Below are positions 4,102 to 13,011 of a DNA stretch of 64,000 bases, in pieces (position 1 is the first letter of the stretch; each line of letters begins with the position of its first letter). The position numbers and the translations under genes were made by a program. The notes below the pieces were generated by a model that searched no databases, had not been told where the DNA came from, and was given only the letters and a program-made list of their open reading frames with translations. The DNA is taken from the NCBI RefSeq assembly GCF_003018115.1, contig NZ_CP027457.1, one strand, 5' to 3'. Origin of the DNA: Escherichia coli. Lineage in GTDB: Bacteria; Pseudomonadota; Gammaproteobacteria; Enterobacterales; Enterobacteriaceae.

Positions 4102-4643
4102 ATTGCCCCCAGCATGGTGGTGACCATCGCCATCAATGGACCAGCCAGATCTGGGTCCACTCGAAACATCGACACAATGCCTTCACTCATCTCCTTCAGT
4201 TTCTGGTGGCGTGGTGCGTTGAGAATGACCGCCTGCTTTGCCTCACTGAGTTCCTTTTCCATTTCAGCCAGCCGAGCCATGAAGCTATCCTGCTCAACCA
4301 GGTGGCCGCGATATTCCAGCGGTAGTACCGCCAGAATTGCCGGGGTCAGTTCACGCACGTTATTTCGGTATTTTTCAGAATCGAATTTGTTATCGAGGAA
4401 GCGGAACAGCTTCTGGCGTGCACGACTGACATCATCAGGAAAATCGATGGTGCCGCCGCCCTGTGCTCGATACTCATTCACAATGAGTGCGGCAACTACA
4501 TCCTGATTATCTTCAGCAGACCAGGCGCGGACGGCATCACGAATTTTTTCGTGGCCTGGCACCTGTTTTATTTGAGAACGATTTATCACCGCAGTCGGGC
4601 TAAATCCGCTAGTCTGTTGGTATGTAAGTGGTTGCATAATCAT
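4098..4643 (-). CDS. CII-position regulatory protein, possibly YdaT/CP76-family (181 aa)
   Basis: Occupies the cII position between cro-like and O; motifs EYRAQGGG and LTPAILAVLPLEY recall the YdaT/phage CII (CP76) family. Family assignment is from memory only. Confidence 0.5.
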   Translation of the reverse strand: MIMQPLTYQQTSGFSPTAVINRSQIKQVPGHEKIRDAVRAWSAEDNQDVVAALIVNEYRAQGGGTIDFPDDVSRARQKLFRFLDNKFDSEKYRNNVRELTPAILAVLPLEYRGHLVEQDSFMARLAEMEKELSEAKQAVILNAPRHQKLKEMSEGIVSMFRVDPDLAGPLMAMVTTMLGAI

Positions 4644-4667
4644 CGCCTTATCAGTTAACGCCGCAGA

Positions 4668-4895
4668 TTAGGCGGCAGAATTACTCGCGTTAAACAATGG
4701 TGCGAGGTCGGGACGAATATCTGCTGGCTTAATCTTTCCACCAGTGGCTGAGACAATTTTCATTACATAGCGGGCATCAATTCCGCCACCGTGTAGCCAA
4801 CGCCAAACAGTGGGCTGGGCTACACCGCATAGATCTGCCAGTCGTTTTTGACTACCTGTAATACTGATTGCGAGTTGAATGGTTTGATTTGTCAT
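4668..4895 (-). CDS. Cro-like HTH regulator (YdaS-like), 75 aa from the ATG
   Basis: Helix-turn-helix motif QKRLADLCGVAQPTVWRWL; divergent from the cI-like gene; AGGA 8 nt upstream of the ATG at 4895 (track ORF starts at a TTG at 4901). Confidence 0.6.
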   Translation of the reverse strand: MTNQTIQLAISITGSQKRLADLCGVAQPTVWRWLHGGGIDARYVMKIVSATGGKIKPADIRPDLAPLFNASNSAA

Positions 4896-5005
4896 TATCA
4901 ATTCCTATTGGTATTACAATGAATGGATAATAGCAATGCGTATTAACCATGGCAATAGCAAAACGTGTTTTGACCATCAATACGCAAGCGTATAAATTAA
5001 AACTT
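4896..5005. promoter_or_regulatory. Immunity-region divergent promoter/operator region (OR-like), with dyad sites ATAATAGCAATGCGTATTAA (about 4927-4946) and GCAATAGCAAAACGTGTTTTG (about 4952-4972)
   Basis: Intergenic between divergent cro-like and cI-like genes; dyad-symmetric repeats sharing AATAGCAA with the OL-like region at 7530-7577. Confidence 0.45.
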
Positions 5006-5698
5006 ATGAAAAAAGAAACTCTTGCTGATCGCTTAAACCTAGCGATGGAACAATCTGGGATGTCTCAAGGCGCTCTTGCAAAGGCGTCTGGCGTAGCTCA
5101 ACCCACAATCTGGAGACTGACAAGCGGCAACGCGCGCGGCTCAACAAAAATTGTTGAAATAGCGAATGCATTGGGTGTTCGAACAGAGTGGCTCTCATCA
5201 GGCATAGGCCCGATGAGAAATGACGGTCAACAATCAGGGAAGCCTACTGTCAACCATTCCAAATACTTCAAGATTGACGTTCTTGATATAGAAGTGAGTG
5301 CCGGGCCGGGAGTCATCAACCGTGAGTTTGTAGAAGTCCTACGCTCGGTTGAGTACTCGTTTGACGATGCTCGTCACATGTTCGATGGCAGGAAGGCGGA
5401 AAATATCCGCATCATTAACGTACGTGGTGACAGCATGTCAGGAACAATCGAACCAGGTGATCTGCTGTTCGTTGATATCACGGTTAAATCTTTCGACGGT
5501 GATGGCATCTATGCGTTTCTGTACGACGACACAGCCCATGTAAAGCGCCTGCAAATGATGAAGGATAAGCTGTTGGTTATCTCTGATAACAAGAGCTACT
5601 CACCGTGGGACCCGATCGAGAAAGACGAGATGAACCGGGTGTTCATTTTTGGGAAAGTCATCGGGAGCATGCCGCAGACCTACAGGAAGCATGGGTAG
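5006..5698 (+). CDS. cI: cI-like prophage repressor (N-terminal XRE-type HTH plus C-terminal S24/LexA-like autoprotease domain)
   Basis: HTH motif GMSQGALAKASGVAQPTIWRL; C-terminal region with GDSM Ser motif (RGDSMSGTIEPGDLLFVD) and downstream Lys (HVKRLQ). Start could also be the upstream ATG at 4949 (track); 5006 leaves room for operators. Confidence 0.8.
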   Translation: MKKETLADRLNLAMEQSGMSQGALAKASGVAQPTIWRLTSGNARGSTKIVEIANALGVRTEWLSSGIGPMRNDGQQSGKPTVNHSKYFKIDVLDIEVSAGPGVINREFVEVLRSVEYSFDDARHMFDGRKAENIRIINVRGDSMSGTIEPGDLLFVDITVKSFDGDGIYAFLYDDTAHVKRLQMMKDKLLVISDNKSYSPWDPIEKDEMNRVFIFGKVIGSMPQTYRKHG

Positions 5699-5733
5699 GT
5701 AGTATGTAAAGAATTACCTTTGGTTGATTTGTA

Positions 5734-5763
5734 ATAGCTACCGATTACGTTATCGGTAGCTAT
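5734..5763 (+). terminator. Perfect hairpin (12-bp arms ATAGCTACCGAT / ATCGGTAGCTAT, 6-nt loop) followed by an A/T-rich tract; possible terminator or attenuator after cI
   Basis: Inverted repeat read directly from sequence; followed by aagaaattttt. Confidence 0.35.
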
Positions 5764-5821
5764 AAGAAATTTTTATGTCTTTAACTGTGTTTATTTATTC
5801 AATACTAGTTGGACTATAGCA

Positions 5822-6844
5822 ATGAAAGATAACAGACAAAAAGTCGTTCATTATAAAAAAGCAGTAATCCCACACAGCAAATCATCATTACAAAACATAC
5901 TACTTAGTATTATAGGTGAGGGCGGCGTTGCAGAAAAAGTACTTAGTAGACAAGAAAAAATAACACCTTCAGATGAAAATTCGGGGTATCGTTTCTTAAA
6001 TAAAAGCGACACATACAAAACTATACTTTTTGGGCAACTGGTTTTATTTGAAAAAGACAAAAGCCAGTCTCTATTAGAGCTTAGTGATAATGTTAAATTT
6101 TATGACATTAACTCCATCACGTCTAATGATATAATTATTGATGGAGATAAACGTAGTGACAAAAAAAGAGAGTTTGTAGATTCAATTTTATATTTTGGTG
6201 TACTAAACAACCATGTCATGATCGTTCAATCCACATCGCTTCGAGCAAGGGAGCTTGAGGCGCATTTGAATTGGCTAATTAATACATTCACAGATGAAAA
6301 AGAATCTGTGTTAATGCTTCAAGATAAGCCATCCGAAGAAACGATGAAAAAAATGGAGAAAGCACCAGCCAAGAGCATAAAAATTGGTGGATTACCCATT
6401 ACTTCAGAAGTTAAAAATTCAGAGAACCAAACACCCTCCTTTTCAAATGGTTCGGTGAAGACAATAAAATACCGCCCAATAGGGAAAGGAGGTGCGCTAC
6501 TAAAAGCATTTTTTGGCGATAACTGGGCAAATGATATAAACATTAAAGATTCATTAGATGAGGCCAATTTACAAGTAAGCCTCGAGATTACATACTTCAG
6601 AAAAACAAATGATAGCGGTCAAGCTGTTATAGACAGTATTGCTACCTCACTACGACATCTAGATGAGGATGATATTAGCATCAAACTTCAAGGCGGTGGG
6701 GAAATAACGGGAAAAGAGATAAAATTATCCGGAAAAATTAGCGTTGAACATAACAATGGCATTATTGATGAAAATGATTTATTCTTAAAAATGCATAAGT
6801 GGCTGTTCTCAAAACTTGATGCCGGAGAATTGGTTGCAAAATAA
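5822..6844 (+). CDS. Hypothetical 340-aa soluble protein, first gene of a rexA-position two-gene module (candidate phage-exclusion component)
   Basis: Long ORF in a markedly AT-rich segment immediately downstream of cI on the same strand; no family recognised by eye; no predicted TM segment. Confidence 0.6.
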   Translation: MKDNRQKVVHYKKAVIPHSKSSLQNILLSIIGEGGVAEKVLSRQEKITPSDENSGYRFLNKSDTYKTILFGQLVLFEKDKSQSLLELSDNVKFYDINSITSNDIIIDGDKRSDKKREFVDSILYFGVLNNHVMIVQSTSLRARELEAHLNWLINTFTDEKESVLMLQDKPSEETMKKMEKAPAKSIKIGGLPITSEVKNSENQTPSFSNGSVKTIKYRPIGKGGALLKAFFGDNWANDINIKDSLDEANLQVSLEITYFRKTNDSGQAVIDSIATSLRHLDEDDISIKLQGGGEITGKEIKLSGKISVEHNNGIIDENDLFLKMHKWLFSKLDAGELVAK

Positions 6845-6865
6845 CCTACCAAAAGGAGGGCGATA

Positions 6866-7372
6866 ATGAAATCGAACATCATCCACCTTATTGGTATGTT
6901 GGTCTTCTATTTTGCTGGTTACTTTTTGTTCAAGTTAGCATTGGGCTATATTACACCGGGTGTTGTCCTAACAGCTCCGTGGGCTGTGGTTGGACTCATG
7001 CAATTGCCATTATCATATTGTATACAAGCCATTTTTAAGGCAAATGAGGCCAATGACCACTCGTCTTTAACCCCTAGTGAGGTTAGGCGATTAGTGCCAA
7101 TAGTCAAATCCAAGAGACTGAAATTGGTTTTATTATTAGCTTTCTATGTATTTTCAACTTTGTTTGTAATCTTGGGGTTAATAGCAAGCACAAATGATCA
7201 AGCCCTACTCTTCAGGGTCTTAAAAATTTCAGGTGGATTACTCTTTATTTCTCTCTATACCAGTGTATTCGTTCATAAAATAATGGTTGAGCTTCAAGAG
7301 TTTAAAGCGTTATTAAACCGAAGAGAATCAGAGAAGAAGGAAAGAGAGTCACTCCTTGATAGATTAAAATGA
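6866..7372 (+). CDS. Hypothetical 168-aa membrane protein with four predicted TM helices and a charged C-terminal tail, second gene of the rexB-position module
   Basis: Hydrophobic stretches IIHLIGMLVFYFAGYFLFKLALGYI, VVLTAPWAVVGLMQLPLSYCIQAIF, LKLVLLLAFYVFSTLFVILGLIAS and GGLLFISLYTSVFVHKIMV; RBS AAGGAGG upstream; 21-nt gap from the upstream gene. Confidence 0.6.
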   Translation: MKSNIIHLIGMLVFYFAGYFLFKLALGYITPGVVLTAPWAVVGLMQLPLSYCIQAIFKANEANDHSSLTPSEVRRLVPIVKSKRLKLVLLLAFYVFSTLFVILGLIASTNDQALLFRVLKISGGLLFISLYTSVFVHKIMVELQEFKALLNRRESEKKERESLLDRLK

Positions 7373-7381
7373 CCCCCCCTC

Positions 7382-7408
7382 CCCGGCCGTCGTGCCGGGT
7401 TTTCTTTT
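7382..7408 (+). terminator. Rho-independent terminator (stem CCCGGC/GCCGGG, loop CGTCGT, then TTTTCTTTT)
   Basis: Read directly from sequence, 10 nt after the stop of the membrane-protein gene. Confidence 0.65.
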
Positions 7409-7529
7409 GCCTCCCCTCATCACACACCGTTCAAAAAACCACCATAACCCCCGCTTCAGTTATCGCTATGCGATGCAAGTCACAAAATTAATTCCTTTTG
7501 CTATCAAACAGTTAATATCAAAATACATC

Positions 7530-7577
7530 AATCAATAGCAATAAGTATTGATATCACCAATAGCAATAGCTATTATT
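7530..7577. promoter_or_regulatory. Candidate OL-like operators / pL region: TCAATAGCAATAAGTATTGA and CCAATAGCAATAGCTATTATT
   Basis: Dyad-symmetric sites sharing the AATAGCAAT core with the OR-like region; located upstream of the N-position ORF, as OL/pL are in lambda. Confidence 0.35.
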
Positions 7578-7649
7578 ACCATGTCGCAACAACACAACGA
7601 TACGGCAACCACCTGATTCGCCGTTGCGATGACCGCTTAGATCCGCAGC

Positions 7650-8060
7650 TTGAATTTCAGCAGGCTCCGGGGAGTGCGAGGGGTGAAGCGGACGCGTGAA
7701 CGTCGGTGTGACCAGCTGAAATCAACTCAACACTTCATACCTCAGTCGCTTCAACGAGGCGGCTTAGTTATGACAACCGGCGGCCATCCACCGCCTGAAT
7801 ACGCGCAGAAGTCTCTATATGTTCAGCAGCCCAGCTTACGGGCAGGAGTTTTTATGGTTCATCAACATTACGGAACTCAGACCGTTAATCGCGGTGCCGT
7901 CCGGCCAGGTATGCTGGTTAAACACAAAGATGGTACCTGGACGGCATCAGCTAATTTGCGCGGTCGGCTTTACTTGCATCGCGGCATCGAACGAACGTAC
8001 ACAAAAGATTTGCTCGTGGAGGTTTACCTGAATGGTACTGGCGGTGGTCTGAGCCACTAA
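7650..8060 (+). CDS. Putative N-like antitermination protein (arginine-rich motif near N-terminus); start codon uncertain
   Basis: Track ORF begins at a TTG; translation contains RGVKRTRERR, resembling the lambda N arginine-rich motif (TRRRERR). Alternative starts: GTG near 7683, ATG at 7770, ATG at 7854 (the last with AGGAG 5 nt upstream). Confidence 0.35.
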   Translation: MNFSRLRGVRGVKRTRERRCDQLKSTQHFIPQSLQRGGLVMTTGGHPPPEYAQKSLYVQQPSLRAGVFMVHQHYGTQTVNRGAVRPGMLVKHKDGTWTASANLRGRLYLHRGIERTYTKDLLVEVYLNGTGGGLSH

Positions 8061-8064
8061 CTAC

Positions 8065-8370
8065 TCACTTGTTTGGGCCGTGTGGAGCCAAAGCAAATTC
8101 AAGGTTGTAGATACTCCCATCAGGGGCTTTGAAATCAACCTCAAACCGAGATGGCGGATTGAATGGATCGAGTACATTTTCTGCTACGCATGTAGATCTC
8201 CAATTGATATGGCCTTTGCCAAGCGAGCGAGATTCCCACCAAGCTCTCCAGGTCTGGTCTTGCGGTTGATCACTCCCCTTTTCCCTTACATACCAATGAT
8301 TCTTTTTCGACTGCTTACCCATTTCTGCGGTTGGGTACATCGGAGAAGACTTTAACTTATCAATCAGCAT
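8065..8370 (-). CDS. Hypothetical 101-aa protein encoded antisense to the early-left operon
   Basis: ORF on the opposite strand with AAGGTG 6 nt upstream of the ATG at 8370 (track extends to an upstream GTG at 8379); no recognisable family; no TM segment. Confidence 0.4.
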   Translation of the reverse strand: MLIDKLKSSPMYPTAEMGKQSKKNHWYVREKGSDQPQDQTWRAWWESRSLGKGHINWRSTCVAENVLDPFNPPSRFEVDFKAPDGSIYNLEFALAPHGPNK

Positions 8371-8508
8371 TCTAGACACCTTATTTATCAGATTTTGAGC
8401 AAGACATAGTGTGATCCAACATTTTGATTAATCAAGCGAGTTCATTCAAACAACTATGCAGTTAACGCACTGTCTGGATCCGCACATCAAAATTTCAGGA
8501 GTTTATCC

Positions 8509-8805
8509 ATGAACGCTTATTACATTCAGGATCGTCTTGAGGCTCAGAGCTGGGCGCGTCACTACCAGCAGATCGCCCGTGAAGAGAAAGAGGCAGAACT
8601 GGCAGACGACATGGAAAAAGGCCTGCCCCAGCACCTGTTTGAATCACTCTGCATCGATCATTTGCAACGCCACGGGGCCAGCAAAAAAGCCATTACCCGT
8701 GCGTTTGATGACGATGTTGAGTTTCAGGAGCGCATGGCAGAACACATCCGGTACATGGTTGAAACCATTGCTCACCACCAGGTTGATATTGATTCAGAGG
8801 TATAA
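8509..8805 (+). CDS. gam: Gam (RecBCD inhibitor), 98-aa form
   Basis: [60 protein letters not shown]... matches lambda Gam as recalled; AGGAG RBS. Confidence 0.95.
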
Positions 8806-8810
8806 AACGG

Positions 8811-9596
8811 ATGAGTACAGCACTCGCAACGCTGGCTGGGAAGCTGGCTGAACGTGTCGGCATGGATTCTGTCGACCCACAGGAACTGATCACCACTCTT
8901 CGCCAGACAGCATTTAAAGGCGATGCCAGCGATGCGCAGTTCATCGCATTGCTGATCGTCGCCAACCAATACGGCCTTAATCCGTGGACGAAAGAAATTT
9001 ACGCCTTCCCCGATAAGCAGAACGGCATCGTTCCGGTGGTGGGCGTTGATGGCTGGTCCCGCATCATCAACGAAAACCAGCAGTTTGACGGCATGGACTT
9101 TGAACAGGACAACGAATCCTGCACATGCCGGATTTACCGCAAAGACCGCAATCATCCGATCTGCGTTACCGAGTGGATGGATGAATGCCGCCGCGAACCA
9201 TTCAAAACCCGCGAAGGCAGAGAAATCACGGGGCCGTGGCAGTCGCATCCCAAACGGATGTTACGGCATAAAGCCATGATTCAGTGTGCCCGTCTCGCCT
9301 TCGGATTTGCTGGTATCTATGACAAGGATGAAGCCGAGCGCATTGTCGAAAATACCGCATACACTGCAGAACGTCAGCCGGAACGCGACATCACTCCGGT
9401 TAACGATGAAACCATGCAGGAGATTAACACTCTGCTGATTGCCCTGGATAAAACATGGGATGACGACTTATTGCCGCTCTGTTCCCAGATATTTCGCCGC
9501 GACATTCGCGCATCGTCAGAACTGACACAGGCCGAAGCAGTGAAAGCTCTTGGATTCCTGAAACAGAAAGCCACTGAGCAGAAGGTGGCAGCATGA
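8811..9596 (+). CDS. bet: Bet (Red-beta single-strand annealing protein), 261 aa
   Basis: Full-length match to lambda Bet as recalled ([66 protein letters not shown]...). Confidence 0.95.
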
Positions 9597-10273
9597 CACC
9601 GTACATTATCCTGCAGCGTACCGGGATCGACGTGAGAGCTGTCGAACAGGGGGATGATGCATGGCACAAATTACGGCTCGGCGTCATCACCGCTTCAGAA
9701 GTTCACAACGTGATAGCAAAGCCCCGATCAGGAAAGAAGTGGCCTGACATGAAAATGTCCTACTTCCACACCCTGCTGGCTGAGGTTTGCACCGGTGTGG
9801 CTCCGGAAGTTAATGCTAAGGCGCTGGCCTGGGGAAAACAGTACGAGAACGACGCCAGAACCCTGTTTGAATTCACTTCCGGCGTGAATATTACTGAATC
9901 CCCGATCATCTATCGCGACGAAAGTATGCGCACCGCCTGCTCTCCCGATGGTTTATGCAGTGACGGCAACGGCCTTGAACTGAAATGCCCGTTTACCTCC
10001 CGGGATTTCATGAAATTCCGGCTCGGTGGTTTCGAGGCAATAAAATCGGCTTACATGGCCCAGGTGCAGTACAGCATGTGGGTGACGCGAAAAGATGCCT
10101 GGTACTTTGCCAACTATGACCCGCGCATGAAGCGTGAAGGCCTGCATTATGTCGTGATTGAGCGGAATGAAAAGTACATGGCGAGTTTTGACGAGATGGT
10201 GCCGGAGTTCATCGAAAAAATGGACGAGGCACTGGCTGAAATTGGTTTTGTATTTGGGGAGCAATGGCGATGA
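9593..10273 (+). CDS. exo: Lambda exonuclease (Red-alpha), 226 aa
   Basis: [54 protein letters not shown]... matches lambda Exo as recalled; ATGA overlap with the bet stop. Confidence 0.95.
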
Positions 10274-10452
10274 CGCATCCTCACGATAATATCCGGGTAG
10301 GCGCGATCACTTTCGTCTACTCCGTTACAAAGCGAGGCTGGGTATTTCCCGGCCTTTCTGTTATCAGAAATCCACTGAAAGCACAGCGGCTGGCTGAGAA
10401 GATAAATAATAAACGGGAGGCGGTATGCACAAAGCATCTCCTGTTGAGTTAA
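10264..10452 (+). CDS. Small hypothetical phage protein (62 aa), lambda orf60a/orf61/orf63-position
   Basis: ORF overlapping the exo stop; position corresponds to the small orfs between exo and xis in lambda. Confidence 0.45.
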
Positions 10453-10622
10453 GAACGAGTATTGAGATGGCACATAGCCTTGCTCAAATTGGAGTCAGGT
10501 TTGTGCCAATACCAGTAGAAACAGACGAAGAATTTCATACGTTAGCCACATCCCTTTCACAAAAGCTGGAAATGATGGTGGCGAAAGCAGAAGCAGAAGC
10601 AGATGAGAGAGACCAGGTATGA
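10425..10622 (+). CDS. Small hypothetical phage protein (65 aa)
   Basis: ORF with GGGAGG-type RBS; acidic C-terminus; translationally coupled to the next ORF through an ATGA overlap. Confidence 0.5.
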   Translation: MHKASPVELRTSIEMAHSLAQIGVRFVPIPVETDEEFHTLATSLSQKLEMMVAKAEAEADERDQV

Positions 10623-10702
10623 CAACCACTGAATGCATTTTTCTGGCAGCGGGCTTCATATTCTGTGTGCTTATGCTTGCCGACATGGGGCTTGTTCAAT
10701 GA
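10619..10702 (+). CDS. Candidate 27-aa single-TM peptide (MTTTECIFLAAGFIFCVLMLADMGLVQ), below the ORF-track size cutoff
   Basis: ATG overlaps the upstream stop (ATGA) and its own stop overlaps the downstream ATG (ATGA); hydrophobic core consistent with one membrane helix. Confidence 0.35.
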   Translation: MTTTECIFLAAGFIFCVLMLADMGLVQ

Positions 10703-10914
10703 CACCTCAGCAAGAAAACGCCCTTCGCAGCATTGCCCGTCAGGCTAATTCTGAAATCAAAAAAGCCAGACAGCATTTTCCGGATAAAAACGTCGATGAC
10801 ATTTGCCGTAGCGTACTAAAGAAGCACCGCGAAACGGTAACGCTGATGGGATTCACACCGACTCATTTAAGCCTGGCGATCGGCATGTTGAACGGCGTCT
10901 TTAAGGAACGGTGA
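10699..10914 (+). CDS. Small hypothetical phage protein (71 aa from MTPQQ...)
   Basis: Internal ATG of track ORF 10633-10914, chosen because it is translationally coupled to the upstream small ORF. Confidence 0.5.
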   Translation: MTPQQENALRSIARQANSEIKKARQHFPDKNVDDICRSVLKKHRETVTLMGFTPTHLSLAIGMLNGVFKER

Positions 10915-11012
10915 ACATGAAAAGCAAAATCATCAGGGAGCTACAGGCTCCTTTTTTATTATTCGCATTTACCCTCAAGCGTATTAACCAACAATTCAGG
11001 GATTAATGAAAG

Positions 11013-11231
11013 ATGGCAGACATCATTGATTCAGCATCAGAAATCGAAGAATTACAGCGCAATACAGCAATAAAAATGCGTCGTCTGAACTACCAGACTG
11101 TATCCGCAACTCATTGTTGTGAGTGTGGCGATCCGATAGATGAGCGAAGACGCCTGGCTGTTCAGGGTTGTCGGACTTGTGCAAGTTGCCAGGAGGAGAT
11201 CGAACTTAAGAACAAACAATGGGGACTGTGA
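11013..11231 (+). CDS. TraR/DksA-family C4 zinc-finger protein (72 aa)
   Basis: CxxC...17...CxxC motif (CCECGDPIDERRRLAVQGCRTCASC) typical of TraR/DksA C4 zinc fingers; common in lambdoid early-left regions. Confidence 0.7.
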   Translation: MADIIDSASEIEELQRNTAIKMRRLNYQTVSATHCCECGDPIDERRRLAVQGCRTCASCQEEIELKNKQWGL

Positions 11232-11278
11232 TGGCCTCAAAGCAGCAAATTTCAACATCATCCAACTGAGGTGTAAAA

Positions 11279-11557
11279 ATGTTCAGAATCATTTTTCCTA
11301 ACACCTGGTACGTCGACCACCACGGCACTCCCTGCAAAATCCTGCGTTCTACCCACAACAAAGTTCACTACATCCGAAAAGGCAGAACATGTATCGCCAG
11401 CATGTTCCGCTTTAATCATGACTTTGAACCTGTGAATAAAGCTGATGCAGATCGGATAGCAGAAGAGATCGAAACGGCAGAACACATTAAGAAGTTACGT
11501 GACATGCGTTCAAAAAGCAGAGGTAACCATGGAATCATACAGCCTCACACTCGATGA
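11279..11557 (+). CDS. Hypothetical phage protein (92 aa), upstream of xis
   Basis: ORF with AGGTG-type RBS in the position occupied by ea-type accessory genes in lambda; no family recognised. Confidence 0.45.
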   Translation: MFRIIFPNTWYVDHHGTPCKILRSTHNKVHYIRKGRTCIASMFRFNHDFEPVNKADADRIAEEIETAEHIKKLRDMRSKSRGNHGIIQPHTR

Positions 11558-11900
11558 GGCCTGTCAGTTTCTTAAGATATCCAGACCAACCGCCACCAAC
11601 TGGATACGAACAGGCCGCCTACAGGCAACACGTAAAGATCCAACCAAGCCAAAATCTCCTTACCTCACAACACGGCAAGCCTGCATTGCGGCGCTTCAGT
11701 CTCCGCTGCATACTGTCCAGGTGAGCGCGGGTGATGGCATAACAGAGGAAAGAAAATGTCACTCTTCCGCAGAAATGAAATATGGTATGCCTCGTATTCG
11801 CTCCCGGGCGGGAAACGAATTAAGGAATCTCTTGGCACAAAGGACAAGCGGCAAGCTCAGGAGTTGCACGACAAGCGAAAAGCAGAACTCTGGCGAGTAG
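11529..11900 (+). CDS. xis: Excisionase-like (AlpA/Xis-type HTH) ORF; reading frame runs about 145 nt into int, so the true 3' end is uncertain
   Basis: [36 protein letters not shown] is an AlpA-like HTH; immediately upstream of the integrase. Confidence 0.45.
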
Positions 11901-12919
11901 AAAAGCTAGGGGATTTACCTGATGTCACTTTTGAAGAGGCCTGCCTAAGATGGCTTGAGGAAAAAGCTGATAAAAAATCTCTCGATTCAGATAAAAGCCG
12001 GATTGAGTTCTGGCTTGAACATTTTGAGGGTATAAGGCTTAAAGATATCTCGGAGGCAAAGATTTACTCTGCTGTAAGCAGAATGCATAACAGAAAGACG
12101 AAAGAAATATGGAAACAGAAAGTTCAGGCCGCCATCAGGAAAGGTAAAGAACCGCCTGTTTATGAACCAAAGCCAGTATCAACTCAGACAAAGGCAAAGC
12201 ATCTTGCCATGATAAAGGCCATTCTCCGTGCTGCAGAACGCGACTGGAAGTGGCTGGAAAAAGCGCCTGTCATCAAGATACCAGCGGTCAGAAACAAGCG
12301 AGTCAGATGGCTGGAAAAGGAGGAAGCAAAACGCCTTATTGATGAGTGCCCCGAACCACTGAAATCTGTCGTCAAGTTTGCGCTGGCAACTGGTCTGAGA
12401 AAGTCGAACATCATAAATCTGGAATGGCAACAAATCGACATGCAGCGACGAGTTGCCTGGGTGAATCCAGAAGAGAGCAAATCAAACCGCGCCATTGGCG
12501 TGGCGCTGAACGATACCGCCTGTAAAGTGTTGCGTGATCAAATAGGCAAGCATCACAAATGGGTGTTTGTACATACCAAGGCGGCTAAGCGAGCAGATGG
12601 AACATCAACGCCTGCGGTCAGGAAGATGCGCATCGACAGCAAGACATCATGGCTATCAGCTTGTCGTCGTGCAGGAATTGAAGATTTCCGTTTCCATGAC
12701 CTCAGACACACCTGGGCAAGCTGGCTGATTCAGTCAGGCGTCCCATTATCAGTGCTTCAGGAAATGGGCGGATGGGAGTCCATAGAAATGGTTCGTAGGT
12801 ATGCTCACCTTGCGCCTAATCATTTGACAGAGCATGCGAGGAAAATAGACGACATTTTTGGTGATAATGTCCCAAATATGTCCCACTCTGGAATTATGGA
12901 GGATATAAAGAAGGCGTAA
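11756..12919 (+). CDS. intD: Tyrosine integrase, DLP12 IntD-type (387 aa)
   Basis: Full-length match to DLP12 IntD as recalled ([46 protein letters not shown]...; C-terminal [10 protein letters not shown]...RYAHL catalytic region); stop 16 nt from the tRNA 3' end. Confidence 0.95.
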
Positions 12920-12934
12920 CTGATTGAATTGTAA

Positions 12935-13011
12935 TGGCGCGCCCTGCAGGATTCGAACCTGCGGCCCACGACTTAGAAGGTCGTTGCTCTATCCAACTGA
13001 GCTAAGGGCGC
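12935..13011 (-). tRNA. argU: tRNA-Arg (anticodon UCU)
   Basis: Reverse complement reads GCGCCCTTAGCTCAGTTGGATAGAGCAACGACCTTCTAAGTCGTGGGCCGCAGGTTCGAATCCTGCAGGGCGCGCCA; cloverleaf with TCT anticodon and encoded CCA. Confidence 0.95.

Follow-up and report, generated by a model that had tools for sequence, protein, structure and literature searches.

Is a small reading frame that runs backwards through the early-left operon of a lambdoid prophage a gene, and if so, whom would its product serve? The question is raised by a frame between kil and gam in the DNA analysed here (the window: 64,000 nt of the Escherichia coli contig NZ_CP027457.1, assembly GCF_003018115.1, to which all positions refer). 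An earlier note, drawn up from the letters alone, had described the frame as an orphan gene with a good ribosome-binding site and had likened it to the morons that lysogens express. We conclude that it is an uncharacterised antisense accessory gene in a sieB-type slot of lambdoid prophages. Because it is already annotated as a hypothetical protein, its value is that of a lead rather than a discovery.

The prophage and its early-left operon

The host element is a phi80/Perceval-like lambdoid prophage, and its closest sequenced phage is Escherichia phage Perceval (Bievrevirus), with 97.8% identity across 4900-8025. Chromosomal genes lie to the right of tRNA-Arg(tct), and the left part of the prophage runs past the start of the window. 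The features of the region are collected in Table 1. The candidate pL is our candidate source of the transcription that opposes the antisense gene. An Rfam scan of 4500-12000 returned no known RNA.

Table 1. Features of the prophage early region and of the antisense locus
Feature	Position	Strand	Evidence or remark
Lambdoid prophage early region	first 13 kb of the window		integrated beside tRNA-Arg(tct)
Early-left operon		plus	order: pL-like promoter, kil, region under study, gam, bet, exo
cI-like repressor	4949-5698	plus	early-left region
Two genes in rexA/rexB position	5822-6844 and 6866-7372	plus	directly after cI
Terminator-like hairpin	7382-7399
Candidate pL	7533-7581	plus	TTGATA-17-TATTAT (7548-7576), operator-like repeats; promoter scan and direct repeats D1
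kil (KilR-type FtsZ inhibitor, 68 aa)	7854-8060	plus	phrog_294 (E 1.6e-35), NF008465, PGAP CDS, homologues
Mosaic block, 467 nt	8026-8492		last 35 nt (12 codons) of kil, antisense gene and upstream region
Antisense accessory gene CDS, 101 aa	8065-8370	minus	ORF, PHROG, PGAP, purifying selection
Shine-Dalgarno sequence AAGGTG	8377-8382	minus	6 nt upstream of the ATG; read from the sequence
Candidate sigma-70 promoter	8406-8435	minus	predicted from conservation of a -35-like block
gam	8509-8805	plus	phrog_259 (E 1.2e-60) and annotation
Integrase, intD-type	11756-12919		directly beside tRNA-Arg(tct)
tRNA-Arg(tct)	12935-13011	minus

The gene that precedes the antisense frame had been taken for an ORF in the position of N (7650-8060). 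This identification was mistaken: that frame is an over-extended reading of Kil/KilR (phrog_294, NF008465), whose true coding sequence is the shorter one in Table 1, and no N gene is present between pL and kil. The kil gene is convergent with the antisense gene, their facing stop codons lying 4 nt apart. Phage records themselves differ on the annotation of kil, which they give as 420, 291 or 207 nt, and one of them names the feature intervening between gam and bet a 'membrane carboxypeptidase'.

The minus-strand frame is a protein-coding gene

From the kil stop (8060) to the gam start (8509), the sole ORF that survives comparison with homologues is 8065-8370 on the minus strand, which runs from an ATG at 8370-8368 to a TGA at 8067-8065. 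Purine blocks resembling AAGGTG or GGAG occupy the site of the Shine-Dalgarno sequence in most homologues. An alternative start, GTG 8379, which would give 104 aa, was discarded because it is part of the Shine-Dalgarno sequence and is not conserved among homologues.

Selection was analysed with seven distinct coding sequences, that of the window and six homologues. Pairwise pS ranged from 0.46 to 1.0, synonymous sites being essentially saturated, as compared with pN values of 0.05-0.27; in the three pairs with unsaturated dS, dN/dS was 0.07-0.09. Differences at codon positions 1, 2 and 3 numbered 421, 371 and 1156, respectively. Both the start (M-L-I) and the stop are conserved, and the minus-strand frame is open in all the homologues compared. 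Judged by frame and substitution pattern, the minus-strand ORF is thus a genuine protein-coding gene under strong purifying selection, far beyond chance, and the earlier note was right to regard it as the only credible ORF of the interval.

The opposite reading, that the locus holds no functional gene because the frame is a chance ORF or because the plus-strand frame 8080-8355 is the real gene (the outcome that the earlier note had named as decisive against its own view), can point to the existence of that 91-codon ORF (91 aa), co-oriented with pL, but the frame and substitution analysis refutes it and leaves it next to no probability: of the six distinct homologous sequences, five interrupt the plus-strand frame with 4-7 stops and the sixth with one (L012, where no open stretch exceeds 65 codons), and the plus-strand product has no PHROG match, whereas the minus-strand frame is intact, with dN/dS of about 0.08 and an excess of third-position substitutions.

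A widespread family of small basic proteins

The deduced product matched phrog_16212 over its full length (E 9e-70, residues 1-101 on profile positions 1-101 of 101), a family that carries no functional annotation. In PGAP/RefSeq the protein is WP_000904075.1, 'hypothetical protein', and a literature search for this accession found nothing. Of 5426 complete E. coli genomes, 27 have the gene at ≥99.6% identity; E. coli WP2-W18-ESBL-08, FDAARGOS_1296 and O155:H21 NWU_1 are among those with the identical locus. The identical protein is found on at least 1000 contigs. Homologues with 55-82% identity are present in E. coli/Shigella, Klebsiella, Enterobacter, Citrobacter, Lelliottia, Cronobacter and Yersinia, as well as in IMG/VR contigs, and when 1.84 billion cluster representatives were searched exhaustively with a HMMER profile, just one further 50%-identity cluster representative of the family emerged, together with truncated or frameshifted copies. 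Conversely, not one of 50,697 phage records contained a copy, whether searched as DNA or by tblastn. The gene is therefore not an orphan, since it has a PHROG family and many homologues; what holds of the original description is that no characterised family was matched.

From its sequence, the protein is small, soluble and basic (11.7 kDa, pI 8.8, GRAVY -0.94, with no transmembrane or hydrophobic segment). Trp, His and Cys positions are invariant in its core, QSWxxWWxSxxLG..HIxWRSTC. No match to it was found in Pfam at E ≤ 10, in NCBIfam or in PDB-sequence searches, and no PADLOC-DB 2.0 family matched at E ≤ 0.1. Comparisons of the family with lambda Gam, Kil, CIII, Ea10, Ral, Orf28, SieB, N and RexAB revealed no similarity; scores with SieB, Ral and Rex were at most 1.6 bits, and the family HMM gave -1.2 bits against lambda SieB. 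One apparent hit, a dockerin-containing repeat protein of 1110 aa (P0021, E 1e-11), was rejected as an artefact of scores summed over repeats: it consists of ten copies, of about 10 bits each, of the W-rich motif SWxxWW...GHIxW, every one with an i-Evalue above 6e4 library-wide.

The alpha/beta model from AlphaFold was of moderate quality (pLDDT 73) and reached 80-92 when a second alignment was supplied, with the predicted order helix 15-23, strand 26-30, helices 41-47 and 54-65, and strands 75-81 and 87-94. No structural neighbour of this model was found. Because the model is moderate and has no structural neighbour, any activity of the protein can be proposed purely from its context. Function cannot therefore be read from the protein itself.

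The gene lies in a mosaic block that close relatives lack

Comparison of the window with Perceval showed 97.8% identity over 4900-8025 and 97.5% over 8493-10300, and no homology between these stretches. The break points are the same in comparison with prophage L062, which shares with the window the repressor WP_024185289.1 and the intD integrase, and whose kil-side flank (7380-8025) is 95.2% identical. Perceval, IdasGreatGrand and L062 all lack the antisense gene, while on either side of it they are 95-98% identical to the window; in the place of the 467-nt block, the sister genomes contain a 94-nt stretch with a 75-nt kil-gam spacer. The ribosome-binding site of gam (8494-8500) begins just past the end of the block (8492), and the junction at 8492/8493 is common to about 3200 E. 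coli genomes, in which the gam-bet module stands behind other upstream genes. A gapped alignment of the spacers was uninformative as to the direction of change, that is, loss in Perceval or gain in the window. An imperfect inverted repeat that flanks the cassette (I4, 8058-8075/8447-8464, 18 nt, 78% complementary) is not conserved in homologues, and we treated it as chance.

The base composition of the block also differs from that of its neighbours. GC content is 0.46 in the ORF and 0.37 in the upstream region, as against 0.52 in gam-bet-exo, and GC3 is 0.46 in the antisense gene as against 0.58 in its neighbours.

In the strict sense, a moron is a unit of promoter, gene and terminator. A simple scan found no terminator-like site after the stop of the antisense gene, towards kil, so that the window copy, unlike lambdoid morons, lacks a terminator of its own and falls short of the strict definition. 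In distribution, base composition and orientation, the likeness suggested by the earlier note was borne out. As with the lambdoid morons lom, bor and STMMW_20121 of ST64B, the extra gene is present in some near-identical phages and prophages and missing from others, here with sharp junctions. It also shares with lambdoid morons a deviating base composition and an orientation antisense to lytic genes (PMC7067206), a placement that is characteristic of moron loci (PMC7067206, PMC12197685), and a putative promoter of its own is predicted for it.

A conserved -35-like block upstream of the gene

The gene had been expected to possess its own promoter within 8380-8500. With 31 distinct upstream regions set in register at their start codons, we aligned the 16 whose mutual identity was below 85%. 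In these 16 regions, conservation of at least 80% was confined to one block, cTTGAT(T), at a fixed distance of about 59 nt before the ATG. In the window it corresponds to TTGATT at 8435-8430 (minus strand), inside the expected interval, and its conservation supports a promoter at the predicted position, from which the leader would be about 30 nt long. The -10 element answers the expectation less well, being poor in the window: either CACACT (8413-8408, 16-nt spacer) or CACTAT (8411-8406, 18-nt spacer). Most homologues contain CAGAAT or CAAAAT 16 nt after the -35-like block, and the most divergent ones (L056-58) have TTGATG-N17-TATAAG with an extended -10 TG (TGnTATAAG). The window promoter scores about 7/12 against the consensus and a simple consensus scan gave no minus-strand match; the candidate promoter looks weak in this copy.

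A palindrome at the -35, TTGATTAATCAA, was considered as a dedicated operator and rejected: the rest of the window shows no enrichment for it, and homologues conserve its 3' half only loosely.

In a number of homologues (L007, L012, L016 and L033-L052), a GC-rich hairpin, CCCGGC...GCCAGCC, is found about 60-100 nt upstream of the start codon. In most Enterobacter-type homologues it lies between the promoter of the gene and the ribosome-binding site of the next early-left gene, and it is absent in the window. This hairpin might act as an insulator or end transcription on one strand or the other.

Antisense placement is constant across loci and resembles that of sieB

We surveyed the context of the gene in 52 loci with 31 distinct upstream sequences. 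As described for the window, all 52 have the gene in antisense orientation inside a lambdoid early-left operon, at a place downstream of an S24-type repressor. Its convergent neighbour in most loci is a KilR gene, with stops exactly 4 nt apart. Elsewhere (L010/L054, L018, L056-58) an N-like gene takes that place, with the C-terminus GKSIPLI or CSRIPxGVI, at a gap of 0-12 nt (L018, L010/L054) or about 70 nt (L056/L057). A hairpin between the two genes occurs only in homologues that are not adjacent to kil. The next early-left gene varies (gam-like, phrog_37974, or genes for 75-aa or 67-aa proteins), as does the recombination module, which is of the Gam/Bet/Exo, RecT/YqaJ, Erf, Rad52 or RNase_T type.

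This arrangement recalls sieB. The sieB gene of lambda is encoded opposite to N and immediately adjoins the N stop codon, an arrangement also seen in a lambda-like E. coli prophage. For P22 sieB, which converges on gene 24, a promoter is annotated and the RNA start has been mapped to 31 nt before the coding sequence. The sieB gene of Rac overlaps ydaF convergently. The sieB gene is expressed from the prophage, and the antisense RNA sas switches its translation on superinfection (PMC7067206, PMC12197685).

Like sieB, the antisense gene opposes pL and abuts the preceding early-left gene, with 4 nt to kil in the window, and its N-adjacent homologues (L010, L018, L056-58) occupy the very position that abuts N. 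With its predicted leader of about 30 nt and its strong Shine-Dalgarno sequence, its geometry resembles that of P22 sieB. Unlike sieB, the window gene is located one gene further along, after kil rather than N, and no internal second start comparable to esc is evident in it. The products also differ, lambda SieB being a hydrophobic protein of about 185-192 aa and the antisense gene product a soluble, basic one of 101 aa with no hydrophobic stretch. Neither the profile comparison (-1.2 bits) nor Pfam indicated sequence homology to SieB.

A probable lysogen-expressed gene, presumably opposed by pL on induction

We favour the reading, with a probability of roughly 0.55, that the locus is a conserved moron cassette placed backwards in the pL operon between kil and gam, probably expressed in the lysogen and opposed by pL on induction. 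The gene would be transcribed from its own weak sigma-70 promoter (-35 TTGATT), with the short leader and strong Shine-Dalgarno sequence described above, and independently of pL; the product could therefore be made in the lysogen, while cI keeps pL repressed. Since only 4 nt separate the gene from the kil stop and no terminator intervenes, its transcript would extend antisense across kil. On induction, head-on transcription from pL would silence the gene through collision and antisense RNA, a proposed shut-down that follows the logic described for P22 sieB and the sas RNA.

The protein would serve the lysogen, either by exclusion or abortive infection of other phages or by modulation of a cytoplasmic protein of host or phage. 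Its position, analogous to that of sieB, and the way antisense morons generally behave make a function that benefits the lysogen, rather than lytic growth, the most probable. Similarity to any exclusion or defence protein was not found, either in PADLOC or in the comparisons with SieB, Ral and Rex. Antisense prophage accessory genes in early operons have repeatedly proved to have exclusion or defence functions, with sieB as the precedent in this slot, and the family is widespread in prophages of clinical Enterobacterales. In view of its strong conservation and the lack of homologues with a known function or fold, the gene is a cheap and well-defined candidate for phage challenge. The locus also offers a natural test of whether convergent transcription from pL is a general switch for lysogen-only genes.

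A bolder proposal, which we put forward as a tentative possibility, is that the protein is a new cytoplasmic anti-phage protein with an unseen fold, residing in the sieB slot, or that the unterminated transcript doubles as a silencer of kil. An anti-phage gene would be retained in this slot because antisense transcription from pL gives the resident phage automatic self-immunity on induction.

Other interpretations centre on kil or on lytic growth

The gene might instead be a module for the control of Kil, its unterminated transcript acting as an antisense RNA against kil or its protein binding and neutralising Kil in lysogens in which pL leaks. What suggests this is the close physical tie between the two genes: exactly 4 nt separate the stops in every kil-adjacent locus, despite divergence of the four bases themselves and of the surrounding synonymous sites; no terminator lies between the genes; the mosaic block carries the 3' end of kil along with the antisense gene; and about 10 of 16 representative lineages are kil-adjacent. 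However, the tie is not obligatory, as in the remaining lineages, about 6 of 16, the neighbour is N-like or another gene, a hairpin lies between and no KilR is adjacent, and the same kil occurs without the antisense gene in Perceval, IdasGreatGrand, L062 and many phages. A purely antisense role, moreover, would not need the strong purifying selection observed on the protein. An AlphaFold prediction of a gene-linker-Kil fusion from a paired alignment gave no support for a complex, with domains at pLDDT 80-92 and a pTM of 0.46, approximately the value that we estimated, without a control, for two independent domains; this is at most weak negative evidence. We think a role as antidote or silencer of Kil unlikely.

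It is likewise improbable, in our judgement, that the gene is a helper of the lytic cycle, expressed from its own promoter during infection or induction as an anti-defence or host-takeover factor in the manner of Gam, Ral or Kil. The lambdoid early-left region does hold small inhibitors of host proteins, many of them small, soluble and basic like the protein described here. Yet a gene needed in lytic growth would be badly placed antisense to an antiterminated early operon, the other host-takeover genes of the region are all co-oriented with pL, and none of the isolated phage genomes in the collection contains the gene.

Additional observations on the region

The two genes in the rexA/rexB position encode a soluble protein of 340 aa (5822-6844, phrog_3482) and a membrane protein of 168 aa (6866-7372, phrog_16807), and neither had a PADLOC match. 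In sister prophages with the same repressor, the cargo of this slot is a 173-aa protein, a DUF6932 protein plus a 310-aa protein, or a 287-aa protein. From its gene content, the slot looks like a variable defence slot expressed in the lysogen.

The untranslated leader between pL and kil contains a stretch of 62 nt (7734-7795, plus strand) that recurs with 97-98% identity in the Enterobacter prophage loci L008 and L012 (6999-7060) and without change in Perceval and IdasGreatGrand; the adjacent DNA of kil and the antisense gene in L008 and L012 is only about 70% identical to the window. The stretch contains a boxA-like sequence, CGCTTCAA, and a 9-bp hairpin. Because there is no N gene between pL and kil, we consider that it may be a nut- or put-like antitermination element. 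The region of the Rac sRNA KilS gave no alignment with the kil leader of the window.

Finally, the sequences P0016, P0018 and P0019 from public assemblies comprise frameshifted copies of the gene, identical to it for 66 or 33 residues and then out of frame, as well as a chimera in which its first 27 residues are followed by the C-terminal portion of a lambda-P-type replication protein. All of these may be assembly errors, or real products of decay and recombination.
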